Assembly: GCF_003334405.1 (NCBI RefSeq)
Contig: NZ_QOWM01000050.1
Strand: one strand, 5' to 3'
From: Escherichia coli
GTDB lineage: Bacteria; Pseudomonadota; Gammaproteobacteria; Enterobacterales; Enterobacteriaceae
Length of the DNA: 1,026 bases
The notes beneath the pieces are model-generated. The model was not told the origin of the DNA. It saw only the letters and a program-made list of their open reading frames with translations, and ran no database searches. Positions 49-1,026 of the stretch are shown in pieces. Made by a program: the position numbers and the translations under genes. Every line of letters starts with the position of its first letter. Position 1 is the stretch's first letter.

Positions 49-549
49 TCAAAATCTGTTCACTACAGCAGTCACCAGAGTTTCTAACTGTTTCGCTGTT
101 TGCTGACAAATATTAAGCGCATCATTAATTTCCTTTCTGAATTCAGGATCGTTAACAATACAAAATCTGTCACCACTAATGATATAATGAACATTGCGTC
201 CGAGTTTGTTAATTTCCGTTTTAAGTCTCCTGATTTCTTTAATCTCATCAGGATAAAGACAGACTTCATTTTTTAACAAAGACTGACGTACACGAATAGC
301 AATTTCTCTGCTCATGCTCATGCCGTGAAGGACAGCATTACGTTTAACAAGTTCTATTTCATGAGGGTAGAGATAAGTGAAAACTGGTTTTGCAGCCTCA
401 TTCTTAACAGGAATAGATACTGGCTTTGTTGGTACATCAAGAACTTTCATTTTTGCGAATACATTTACACTATCAACTCCATATGAAGCTGCATTTACTC
501 TCGCAAGTTCATATTCATCATCATTTAATCTAAAACATACATTTTTCAT
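49..549 (-). CDS. Hypothetical DNA-binding protein with tandem ribbon-helix-helix (RHH)-like repeats; 166 aa from the ATG at 547-549 (track ORF 49..624 uses an upstream TTG)
   Basis: Uninterrupted minus-strand reading frame ending in TGA at 49-51. In-frame ATG at 547-549 is preceded by GGTGA (554-558), a plausible Shine-Dalgarno. I spot-checked the track translation against the sequence (residues GMSMS at 310-324; C-terminal NRF at 52-60). The protein has repeated modules of a short hydrophobic strand followed by an acidic helix (VCFRLNDDEYELARVNAASYGVDSVNVFAKMKVL; VFTYLYPHEIELVKRNAVLHGMSMSREIAIRVRQSLL), each with a G-x-(D/S)-x-S turn typical of CopG/Arc/MetJ-type RHH domains. The gene could not be matched to a named family from memory. 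Confidence 0.6.
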   Translation of the reverse strand: MKNVCFRLNDDEYELARVNAASYGVDSVNVFAKMKVLDVPTKPVSIPVKNEAAKPVFTYLYPHEIELVKRNAVLHGMSMSREIAIRVRQSLLKNEVCLYPDEIKEIRRLKTEINKLGRNVHYIISGDRFCIVNDPEFRKEINDALNICQQTAKQLETLVTAVVNRF

Positions 550-553
550 TCTT

Positions 554-558
554 TCACC
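554..558 (-). promoter_or_regulatory. Candidate ribosome-binding site (GGTGA) for the ATG at 547-549
   Basis: Minus-strand sequence reads ...ctctatGGTGAaagaATGaaaaat...; GGTGA matches the 3' part of the AAGGAGGTGA consensus, 4 nt before the ATG. Confidence 0.35.
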
Positions 559-563
559 ATAGA

Positions 564-598
564 GCCTGCGGCAGGCACAGGCAAAAACATCGTTTTTG
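564..598. promoter_or_regulatory. Pair of inverted repeats just upstream of the RBS: GCCTGC-g-GCAGGC (564-576) and CAAAAAC-atc-GTTTTTG (582-598); candidate operator
   Basis: Both are perfect inverted repeats read directly from the sequence. The CAGGC motif occurs three times: once inverted (564-568) and twice direct (572-576, 578-582). They lie between the candidate promoter and the ATG, where RHH repressors typically bind. Confidence 0.3.
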
Positions 599-611
599 GA
601 CAATCTACTGA

Positions 612-627
612 AAATTGCATGCAATTT
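612..627. promoter_or_regulatory. 16-bp perfect palindrome AAATTGCATGCAATTT; candidate protein-binding site overlapping the candidate -10
   Basis: Positions 612-627 are exactly self-complementary across a GCATGC core. A perfect 16-mer palindrome is unlikely by chance in 1 kb (rough expectation on the order of 0.01-0.02). Confidence 0.35.
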
Positions 628-642
628 CTAGTGGATTGTCTA
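614..642 (-). promoter_or_regulatory. Candidate sigma70-like promoter for the RHH-repeat gene: -35 TAGACA (637-642), 17-bp spacer, -10 TGCAAT (614-619)
   Basis: Hexamers and spacing read on the minus strand. The -35 is a 5/6 match to TTGACA; the -10 is only a 4/6 match to TATAAT and lacks the conserved A at position 2. An alternative is -10 TATAGT (658-663) with a weak -35 TTTATA (682-687, 18-bp spacer). Neither is strong; this is a prediction only. Confidence 0.2.
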
Positions 643-777
643 TCCTGCATTGATTGTACTATATGTGGCGCTGTGCCTAGCTATAAAATCGTCGCTGCAT
701 ATGTCCAGATTTCGTTGCTGAAAGGTTCTTTCGTCTTCGACCATCTGGCAAACGTATAGCTGAAAGATTTGTGAAAG

Positions 778-801
778 AAAAAACAAGCCTGGCAGGGCTG
801 G
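778..801 (-). terminator. Possible weak terminator for the upstream minus-strand gene: short stem (AGCC/GGCT) followed by a T6 run on the minus strand
   Basis: Minus strand reads ...ccAGCCctgccaGGCTtgTTTTTTcTTTc (A-run 778-783 on the plus strand). The stem is only 4-5 bp, so this is marginal. Confidence 0.2.
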
Positions 802-806
802 GAATT

Positions 807-833
807 GTTACGGCTGAAGCCGTAACGCTTTTT
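807..833 (+). terminator. Intrinsic-terminator-like structure: 8-bp stem GTTACGGC/GCCGTAAC with TGAA loop, then GC + TTTTT
   Basis: Perfect inverted repeat 807-814/819-826 followed by a T5 run at 829-833 on the plus strand. No plus-strand gene is evident upstream, so its function is unclear. The same stem forms on the minus-strand transcript but is followed there by AAUU, not a U-run. Confidence 0.3.
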
Positions 834-860
834 AAGTCCTCGCTGCGCTGCGGGGCTTCC

Positions 861-894
861 GGCGCAAAGCGCCTCCCATGCCCTTACAGGGCAT
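861..894. repeat. Two adjacent short GC-rich stem-loops in the 3' region of the upstream gene: GGCGC-aaa-GCGCC (861-873) and ATGCCCT-tac-AGGGCAT (878-894)
   Basis: Both are perfect inverted repeats read from the sequence. They lie 16-49 nt downstream of the TAA at 910-912 on the minus strand. Neither is followed by a U-run, so they are more likely 3'-end stabilising structures or protein sites than canonical terminators. Confidence 0.3.
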
Positions 895-909
895 AAGAAA
901 CAAGGGCAA

Positions 910-1026
910 TTAAGCCCCTGCGCGATGATTGCTGACTTCTTTTTCCAGAGCCTTATTAACAAAGGCGTTCAGTGATAAATCTTCTTCCATCGCCATTTCT
1001 GCTACCCGACGATGCAGTTCTGGATC
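910..1026 (-). CDS. 3' end of a gene truncated at the window edge; C-terminal RHH-type DNA-binding domain resembling the C-terminus of HicB-family antitoxins
   Basis: Reverse complement of 913..1026 translates in frame with the window edge to DPELHRRVAEMAMEEDLSLNAFVNKALEKEVSNHRAGA, followed by TAA at 910-912. The pattern P-x-LH-x-x-(hydrophobic)-A-x-x-A-x-E-x-x-SLN-x-(F/Y/W)-(V/I) is the helix-turn-helix half of an RHH fold as I recall it from HicB-type and related antitoxins. The N-terminal part of the protein is outside the window, so the family call is tentative. It is absent from the ORF track because no start codon lies inside the window. Confidence 0.55.
   Translation of the reverse strand, partial: DPELHRRVAEMAMEEDLSLNAFVNKALEKEVSNHRAGA

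Follow-up and report, generated by a model that had tools for sequence, protein, structure and literature searches.

The hicAB locus best described for this plasmid group is the 'hicA^O^B' system of the IncX4 plasmids pJIE143 and p14EC007a (Lin et al., NAR 2025, PMC11878559). On p14EC007a, HicA acts as a toxin that HicB neutralises; this 'overlapping' subfamily predominates on IncX4 plasmids, can be deleted and brings only a slight competitive advantage, and in IncI2 the hicAB loci affect plasmid transmission (PMC11878559). The hicAB operon that reaches into the DNA analysed here is alike in having the toxin gene first, overlapping open reading frames and no internal terminator (PMC11878559); nothing substantive differs between the two, and the operon is presumably identical to that of p14EC007a. 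Regarding the proteins, HicB and HicA of H. influenzae and the solved HicAB complexes (6g26, 4p78) present the same combination of an N-terminal HicB fold and a C-terminal RHH as found here, although the solved HicBs have only about 10% sequence identity with the present one. The HicB of E. coli K-12 has a helix-turn-helix, not an RHH.

The transfer genes have their described counterpart in the TaxA/Ddp1–TaxC pair of R6K (IncX2), which shows the same oriT-taxA-taxC order and belongs to the same NCBIfam families, DDP1 and MobP1, with less than 60% identity between the transfer genes of R6K and those of IncX4 (PMC8725589). The R6K relaxosome is the subject of Nunez, Avila and de la Cruz (1997, as cited in PMC8725589), and in the IncX4 plasmid pHNSHP23 both taxA and taxC are essential for conjugation according to transposon sequencing (PMC8725589). 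The Ddp1 proteins of the IncX3 type are 27–30% identical to the TaxA considered here. TraY of the F plasmid is likewise an accessory protein of the relaxosome whose single chain contains two RHH repeats in tandem, but it is devoid of the C-terminal PcfF/MobC-like domain of TaxA and its partner is a MOBF relaxase. PcfF of the Enterococcus plasmid pCF10 (6qeq) and MobC share with TaxA an N-terminal RHH followed by a C-terminal helical domain with the motif (I/V)G(R/I)N(I/L)N, whereas PcfF has a single RHH, not two, and works in Gram-positive bacteria with a relaxase of the MOBQ type. Finally, the oriT of RP4 (MOBP11) resembles the present one in placing an inverted repeat immediately 5' of an identical nick sequence, TATCCTG/C (the slash marks the nick), with the accessory and relaxase genes on the inverted-repeat side; the sequence of the inverted repeat and the accessory protein (TraJ) are different, and RP4 has a single oriT.

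The window, by which we mean the whole stretch of 1,026 nt that was analysed, is 99.9% identical over its full length to conjugative IncX4 plasmids of E. coli of 30–33 kb. It is matched by 586 PLSDB records, including 509 typed as conjugative, and was found in 314 of 5,426 complete E. coli genomes, nearly always plasmid-borne. As reference we used the 32.6-kb plasmid NZ_CP070012.1 (locus L001), in which the window corresponds to L001 8001–9026. The gene order there is hicA (82 aa), hicB (115 aa), 360 nt, ddp1 (166 aa) and taxC (409 aa), with a 4-nt overlap (ATGA) between hicA and hicB and 11 nt between the ddp1 stop codon and the taxC start. All the long open reading frames of interest in the window lie on the minus strand, and the 360 nt from 909 to 550 between hicB and taxA/ddp1 are non-coding. 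A search of the window against Rfam gave a single chance snoRNA match, below threshold, and thus revealed no known RNA element. The features are collected in the table.

We think, with a probability of about 87%, that the window is a piece of IncX4 backbone holding two independent modules, which are neighbours by plasmid architecture and not by shared regulation. The first module is a type II toxin-antitoxin operon, hicA-hicB, with only the last 38 codons of hicB inside the window; the N-terminal domain of HicB would neutralise HicA, and the RHH dimer at the C-terminus of HicB is presumed to repress the hicA promoter, in a putative autoregulation. The second module consists of a probable origin of transfer and the taxA(ddp1)-taxC operon. 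TaxA is predicted to bind the oriT palindrome through its two tandem RHH repeats, while its PcfF/MobC-like C-terminal domain would present the adjacent TATCCTG/C site to the relaxase TaxC, which would nick the plus strand and pilot it into the recipient. The IncX4 hicAB has been characterised experimentally and the functions of TaxA, TaxC and oriT in R6K are already known, so the finding is correct but ordinary. Its value is mostly for annotation: the palindrome is to be labelled a probable origin of transfer rather than an operator of the antitoxin, and the second RHH gene as coding for a relaxosome protein. The locus matters in practice because IncX4 plasmids are a main vehicle of mcr-1 colistin resistance.

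Features of the window, with coordinates on its 1,026 nt (L001 coordinates refer to NZ_CP070012.1)
Feature	Position	Strand	Evidence or remarks
taxC (MOBP relaxase), first 12 codons	1..37	-	NZ_CP070012.1 annotation; full protein NCBIfam MobP1 393 bits
taxA/ddp1, 166 aa	49..549	-	ATG at 549, stop codon 49-51
TaxA C-terminal helical domain, residues 97-166, with VGRN motif and stop codon; PcfF/MobC-like	49..261	-	PcfF 6qeq; AlphaFold helices 100-124, 135-160
TaxA RHH repeat 2, residues 54-93; β-strand KPVFTYLY	271..390	-	Pfam Arc 0.0025; profile vs PDB
TaxA RHH repeat 1, residues 1-40; β-strand residues 2-9 KNVCFRLN	430..549	-	Family profile vs PDB
Small hairpin CAAAAAC-atc-GTTTTTG between inverted repeat and taxA	582..598		DNA fold; 3-lineage alignment
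70-nt oriT core, two copies in the plasmid	583..652		100% complementary, NZ_CP070012.1 2624-2693 and 9674-9743
42-nt imperfect palindrome (putative oriT inverted repeat)	599..640		21-nt arms, 86% complementary; DNA fold z -4.71
MOBP nick motif TATCCTGC	641..648	+	Sole YATCCTGY match in the window
Weak sigma-70-like promoter candidate for taxA-taxC, TTTATA-18-TATAGT	658..687	-	Consensus match only, 9/12, L001 8340-8369
Three G+C-rich hairpins between hicB and oriT	792..901		DNA fold z -3.84 (+), -2.26 (-)
Terminator-like hairpin over the hicB stop codon	900..921	-	Consensus scan, L001 8106-8127; function inferred
hicB 3' end, residues 78-115 (RHH helices A and B); stop TAA 910-912	910..1026	-	Translation, Pfam, PHROG, AlphaFold

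The minus strand from 1026 to 913 translates to DPELHRRVAEMAMEEDLSLNAFVNKALEKEVSNHRAGA, followed by a stop codon at 912-910, and these residues are the last 38 of the 115-aa HicB. The full-length protein matches Pfam HicB (PF05534, E 1.1e-19, residues 54–104) and the PHROG family 'HicB-like antitoxin' (1.2e-49, residues 1–112), and it is 62% identical to the founding HicB of H. influenzae (Q9LA69). Residues 72–112 match Arc-like repressor profiles in PHROG (9e-5 and 8e-4), and residues 73–112 the solved CopG-family RHH protein 9kkd (E 0.053). The AlphaFold model (pLDDT 85.9, 30 homologues used) has a β-sheet at 3–37, a long helix at 40–60 and helices at 79–91 and 96–114; therefore, the window contains the RHH helix pair without the β-strand. 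The top Foldseek matches of this model, all with modest E-values, are HicB of B. pseudomallei (6g26, probability 1.00, E 7.5e-3), TTHA0281 (2dsy) and HicB3 of Y. pestis (4p78), and the N-terminal HicB-type fold (β-sheet plus helix), which is the HicA-binding part, is present in the model. The fragment had been taken in the preliminary description for the C-terminus of a HicB-like RHH antitoxin, and the full protein, with its HicB N-terminal domain and HicB-type folds, bears this out. The same description placed a HicA-like gene of roughly 60 aa past position 1026. The gene lies outside the window, directly past 1026 in the 99.9%-identical NZ_CP070012.1, where it adjoins hicB in the same orientation; the position was thus rightly foreseen and the size was not, since the toxin has 82 aa (Pfam HicA_toxin 1e-11; PHROG toxin family 3.3e-34, full length). 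Hence both the N-terminal domain and the adjacent toxin, which were looked for as a check on the identification, are there in NZ_CP070012.1. We infer the presence of hicA in the source molecule from these identical relatives, because there are deletion variants that keep a hicB remnant covering the part in the window.

A consensus scan found a perfect TTGACA-17-TATAAT promoter 29 nt upstream of hicA, beyond position 1026, preceded by a bidirectional terminator. An 8+8 palindrome, TGCAACTA-ATTA-TAGTTACA, overlaps its -10 box. This palindrome, TGCAACTAATTATAGTTACA, was found nowhere else in the 32.6-kb plasmid at up to two mismatches, including window positions 550–909, and it is the obvious candidate operator of HicB. 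On the other side of the operon, the hairpin over the hicB stop codon has an 8-bp stem with five G-C pairs and a T-rich tail. The neighbouring cluster of three hairpins is conserved non-coding sequence, which is matched by 1,550 PLSDB records, with more than 1,000 plasmids of other groups among them, and on other plasmids it turns up in varied surroundings: on the 3' side of a zinc-finger gene, close to IS elements and within an IncN region. It could work as an insulator or terminator, or as a single-strand initiation site, a kind of element reported for R6K (Nomura et al. 1991, as cited in PMC6854812). Read-through transcription from hicB into oriT and taxA may also take place. The promoter candidate for taxA-taxC sits just upstream of the nick site and the inverted repeat.

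The non-coding stretch also holds the palindromic region that, to judge from its sequence, is the origin of transfer. The inverted repeat abuts the nick motif, which follows the MOBP nick consensus (C/T)ATCCTG(C/T) (PMC3772185); taken by itself, the motif arose by chance in 24 of 200 shuffled sequences. The outer arms of the palindrome, GACAATC and GATTGTC, are conserved, and its inner 29 nt are lineage-specific. The small hairpin next to it keeps its arms in all three aligned lineages, and L001 differs at one base of the loop. The two copies of the oriT core are perfect and inverted and flank the hicAB-replication region, the second copy lying beyond the replication genes; pCSZ4 has the same duplicated arrangement, with 94-nt copies that are 99% identical. 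This inverted pair recalls R6K, for which two oriTs have been described. The same unit of inverted repeat and nick is carried by mini-plasmids that have only oriT. By analogy with RP4, the nick is predicted between G647 and C648, and the plus strand would be the one transferred; in that case, hicB and hicA would be on the side that enters the recipient first, with hicAB about 260 nt from the predicted nick.

The second gene of the window encodes an accessory protein of the MOBP relaxase TaxC. It is immediately upstream of taxC, with oriT 50–110 nt upstream of taxA, and its product scores 234.9 bits against the NCBIfam equivalog NF041451, DDP1 (cut-off 150). The protein that PGAP names 'TaxA' in mcr-1 plasmids (pCSZ4) matches the same DDP1 model with 230 bits, so that the names Ddp1 and TaxA designate a single family (compare PMC4207749). 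Single-sequence searches of Pfam and the PDB with TaxA were too weak to define its domains (Pfam Arc 0.0025, NikA-like 0.25) and a family profile was needed. The family is small: an exhaustive search of 1.84 billion proteins gave 42 representatives. With this profile, repeat 1 matches HP0222 (0.0021), 2k1o (0.0033) and AvtR (0.0064) in the PDB, as well as ParG and CopG; repeat 2 matches AmrZ (1.3e-6) and both repeats of F TraY (3e-4, 9f0x); and the C-terminal domain matches PcfF of pCF10 (6qeq, E 3.5e-7, positions 107–164). Moreover, members of the family match Pfam TraY (four members), NikA-like, FitA-like RHH, RHH_1 and CopG, and one matches MobC. Repeats 1 and 2 can be aligned to each other in register (hhalign E 0.002), a likeness visible only by profile-profile comparison, as BLASTP of repeat 1 against repeat 2 gave nothing. 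From these matches it follows that TaxA is a tandem, TraY-like RHH fused to a PcfF/MobC-like domain, which is presumed to be the part that recruits the relaxase. The AlphaFold model of the monomer is of low confidence (pLDDT 66); it shows a pattern of helix-helix, helix-helix, long helix and long helix, with helix pairs at 10–22/28–37 and 62–74/79–91 that suit an RHH fold and no strands assigned, and its Foldseek matches are not significant (E >1, with Arc, CopG and CdbA among the noise).

The profiles thus confirm what had been proposed from the letters alone, that two consecutive genes on the same strand encode RHH proteins, the second starting 360 nt downstream. A profile comparison of the HicB RHH with the TaxA repeats gave no meaningful match, so the two RHH domains are not close relatives. 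Whether the two genes are functionally coupled was studied in eight plasmids of the IncX4 clade, six of the eight typed IncX4. The six with intact hicAB all have the same HicA and HicB protein accessions, although they carry four sequences of the inner palindrome (types A–D) and TaxA proteins down to 63% identity; TaxA has at least six variants in this comparison. As HicB is invariant while the palindrome varies, HicB cannot read the variable part of the palindrome. Plasmid pCSZ4 is 95–100% identical to the window plasmid from hicA to the nick motif, about 70% identical over the stretch that comprises the inner palindrome, taxA and the initial ~120 codons of taxC, and about 100% identical again beyond it; this drop in identity places a recombination boundary at the nick, between the two modules. 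In two plasmids hicA is missing together with the 5' half of hicB, yet both retain ddp1-taxC and are classed as conjugative. In the other direction, the same hicAB is found at 90% nucleotide identity on IncI2 plasmids without ddp1 nearby, and it is the last gene pair of a block running from a J-domain gene to an HTH gene that is syntenic between IncX4 and IncI2. Ddp1 homologues are encoded by approximately 1,534 plasmids in PLSDB, some 1,077 of which fall below 60% identity to the protein of the window. In more distant plasmids with ddp1 and relaxase, the toxin-antitoxin slot holds a RelE/ParE toxin with its antidote (one plasmid), RelB-RelE (two) or, in one IncX3 plasmid, no annotated module; two small overlapping open reading frames in that IncX3 slot match no NCBIfam or PHROG family. 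The modules are therefore evolutionarily independent. The co-occurrence of hicAB and ddp1 that the preliminary description proposed to check does exist on the IncX4 backbone, but it is confined to it, and of the two relations offered there, that of unrelated neighbours is the one favoured, with the second gene coding for the relaxosome accessory protein TaxA/Ddp1 and the palindrome being the probable oriT inverted repeat.

Independence in regulation would still leave room for a link through position. It is conceivable, if somewhat doubtful in our opinion, that hicAB is kept beside oriT as an early-entering gene, for early addiction or for competition with resident plasmids, in which case the modules would be coupled by position and not by regulation. 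With the predicted orientation of the nick, hicB would come ~260 nt after the start of the leading side, and the DNA transferred would be the template strand for hicAB. Besides, three different toxin-antitoxin families use the same slot in ddp1 plasmids, and a small competitive advantage from hicAB has been reported in IncX4 (PMC11878559). The position of hicAB at the close of the J-domain-to-HTH block common to IncX4 and IncI2 is a further point in favour. However, the slot of the IncX3 plasmid has no annotated module, the nick strand and the polarity of transfer are taken from RP4 by analogy, the second, inverted oriT allows the segment to enter with either end first, and the measured benefit of hicAB in IncX4 is slight.

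A quite improbable alternative is that hicB in the source molecule is a truncated relic without a toxin gene. Such relics do exist: in pEc-042-T5-MAC_3 and in an NDM3 plasmid a deletion of ~430 nt removes hicA and the 5' half of hicB, the remaining piece of hicB includes the whole part seen in the window, and H74, H75 and H189 show the same deletion pattern. Nevertheless, both deletion variants examined have a type C palindrome and a different TaxA, whereas the window's haplotype, defined by a type A palindrome and TaxA WP_001694182, carries a HicB annotation in the three listed records that are 99.9% identical to it, NZ_CP070012.1, NZ_OP378631.1 and NZ_CP074772.1. In NZ_CP070012.1, the one record examined, hicA and full-length hicB are intact, and 554 of the 799 PLSDB records that match hicAB hold at least 80% of the operon.

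Least credible of all is a regulatory cascade in which HicB and TaxA share the palindromic region, so that the level of antitoxin would govern expression of the relaxosome genes, or vice versa: the genes adjoin each other in the same orientation, with 360 nt between them, both products are RHH DNA binders and hicAB loci influence the transmission of IncI2 plasmids (PMC11878559), but HicB is identical across palindrome types A–D whereas the β-strand residues of TaxA change with the palindrome, the palindrome at the hicA -10 box has no copy in 550–909 even at two mismatches, a terminator-like hairpin and the hairpin cluster stand between hicB and taxA, IncX4 plasmids with hicAB deleted retain ddp1-taxC, and other toxin-antitoxin families occupy the slot in related plasmids. 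The shared control region suggested in the preliminary description is accordingly unsupported, with HicB unchanged where the palindromes differ and a candidate operator only at the hicA promoter.

Coming back to the reading of two independent modules, the variation of TaxA and its palindrome deserves attention in its own right. A scan of metagenome contigs for the conserved nick region, together with the plasmid loci, yielded 137 oriT sites, among which 24 variants of the palindrome occur; at 24 loci (25 of these sites) a TaxA is adjacent. The first β-strand (residues 2–9) goes with the centre of the palindrome: KN[VI]CFRL is found with GCATGC, [KR]QIKFR[LV] with GGTACC and KMIAFRL with GTTAAC. 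The second goes with the outer boxes: [PA]VFTY with C[AG]CTAG, [PA]VKTC with ATGGTC and LVSVR with CGATGTC. The variable residues are at alternate positions, 3 and 5 in the first strand and 57 and 59 in the second. In terms of these residues, the central hexamer pairs as N-C with GCATGC, Q-K with GGTACC, M-A with GTTAAC and Q-L with GATATC, and the outer boxes as F-Y with CRCTAG, K-C with ATGGTC and S-R with CGATGTC. In Arc, MetJ and CopG, alternate positions of the RHH β-strand face the DNA. Seven of the nine combinations of the first three types of strand 1 with the three types of strand 2 were seen, with no exceptions to the pairing. One locus (P0021) combines a new first strand, KQILFRL, with a known second one, KAVKTC, and it has ATGGTC boxes around the new centre GATATC, as predicted beforehand; another (P0007), with KQVKFRL and KAVFTY, has GGTACC and CGCTAG as predicted, its haplotype being already represented.

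Since the sub-sites alternate (outer, central, outer) over only 29 nt, the pattern cannot be a product of simple linkage, and selection for matching pairs of TaxA and palindrome is the likely cause. On balance, we lean to the view that the IncX4 family and its satellite plasmids have several oriT specificity types set by a modular β-strand code of TaxA, a view that comes from comparing sequences of nine haplotypes only, related to each other. Several further TaxA contigs end 40–70 nt upstream of taxA, with unreadable palindromes, presumably because the duplicated oriT breaks the assemblies. A co-variation between the C-terminus of TaxA and the N-terminus of TaxC (types x/X and y/Y) was also considered as evidence of interaction and was discounted, as these segments adjoin each other and their linkage accounts for it. 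No description of a TaxA-oriT recognition code was found in the literature searched, and this code may be the only potentially new element of the locus. If the recognition is direct, it would provide a readable and re-programmable determinant of mobilisation specificity among epidemic mcr-1 plasmids and would predict which oriT-only or taxA-only mini-plasmids each helper plasmid moves. Likewise, if discrete matched TaxA and oriT types reassort and satellites copy them, this would help to predict which plasmids mobilise which, and RHH-DNA recognition could be studied in a simple natural system.

As to the small replicons themselves, most of the metagenome oriT sites are on contigs of 1.5–8 kb without taxA. 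A Col(MG828) plasmid of 1,459 bp has the oriT unit only, and another, of 2,255 bp, has RepL, a TaxA type of its own, a matching palindrome and the nick motif, without a relaxase.

Within the oriT palindrome, the hexamer at the centre (GCATGC, GGTACC, GTTAAC or GATATC) varies in step with the DNA-facing residues in β-strand 1 of TaxA, the tandem ribbon-helix-helix accessory protein of the TaxC relaxase, and the outer boxes (CRCTAG, ATGGTC or CGATGTC) vary in step with those in β-strand 2. Seven of the nine combinations of the first three β1 types with the three β2 types were observed, with no exceptions to the pairing, and one prediction of the pairing that was made in advance was borne out. 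Homologues of this protein are labelled by PGAP either as DNA distortion polypeptide 1 or as relaxosome-coupling protein TaxA; since proteins under both names match the same NCBIfam DDP1 model, they form a single family. The term coupling protein is a misnomer for an accessory factor that is predicted to bind oriT.

Features of the window and of the compared loci (L numbers); L001 is a locus of plasmid NZ_CP070012.1, which is 99.9% identical to the window
Feature	Position	Loci or plasmids	Remark
TaxA-palindrome co-variation	window 599-640 and 271-549 (-)	L001, L006-L013, L020, L034, L054, L141, L144	
Mosaic segment	window ~636 to L001 9348 (~320 nt past window position 1)		comparison with pCSZ4
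70-nt oriT core	window 583-652	NZ_CP070012.1 2624-2693 and 9674-9743	perfect inverted copies
Relaxase-less oriT carriers		L019 (NZ_CP033852.1, 1,459 bp); L020 (NZ_CP069665.1, 2,255 bp); many of L021-L100	
Slot upstream of oriT-ddp1 in other ddp1 plasmids		L003, L004, L005, L014	
hicA promoter	L001 7468-7504, outside window		perfect sigma-70 consensus
hicAB deletion, about 430 nt	equivalent to L001 about 7491-7922	L007 (NZ_CP086541.1), L012 (NZ_CP083882.1)	
Hairpin-rich non-coding element, about 110 nt	window 792-901		

The region around the nick is mosaic when compared with the mcr-1 plasmid pCSZ4. From hicAB to the nick motif, identity is 95-100%; it falls to about 70% across a stretch that comprises the inner palindrome, taxA and ~120 codons at the start of taxC, and beyond that returns to ~100%. 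The left breakpoint falls at the nick site. The oriT core is duplicated, and the segment between its two copies contains hicAB along with the genes of the leading side and the replication region. In pCSZ4 the copies extend over 94 nt with 99% identity. Whichever the lineage, its own palindrome type is found in both copies. Assemblies presumably break at this repeat in several cases (L142, L143 and L146).

The IncX4-style oriT unit, formed by the palindrome and TATCCTGC, is also found without a relaxase on tiny Col(MG828)-type plasmids and on many metagenome contigs of 1.5-8 kb. A taxA gene is adjacent at only 25 of 137 oriT sites, and one small relaxase-less plasmid has its own taxA together with a matching palindrome. 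These small plasmids and contigs are likely to be satellites that IncX4-family helpers mobilise.

The position of hicAB, on the predicted leading side of oriT, is an interchangeable toxin-antitoxin slot, which in other ddp1 plasmids holds RelE/ParE with an antidote or RelB-RelE. In IncX3 it is filled by two small overlapping ORFs for which no NCBIfam or PHROG family was matched. When the IncI2 plasmid pP111 (L147) is compared with L001 4113-8117, the hicAB pair has 90% nucleotide identity, and these are the last genes of a syntenic block common to IncX4 and IncI2 plasmids that runs from a J-domain protein through several small proteins and an HTH protein; hicAB therefore moves with this block and not with the relaxosome genes. 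The -10 box of the hicA promoter is covered by an 8-4-8 palindrome (TGCAACTAATTATAGTTACA), a candidate operator for HicB that has no second copy in the plasmid. In some IncX4 plasmids a deletion has taken away this -10 box together with hicA and half of hicB at its 5' end; a 57-codon hicB remnant persists, still labelled HicB antitoxin by PGAP.

The hairpin-rich element between oriT and hicB could act as a terminator or insulator, or as a single-strand initiation site. It has matches in 1,550 PLSDB plasmids. For about 1,100 of these, which are large Klebsiella IncF/IncN/IncR plasmids, the identity is 80-90%; there the element carries no annotation and is often located some 150 nt beyond the 3' end of a C2H2 zinc-finger gene.
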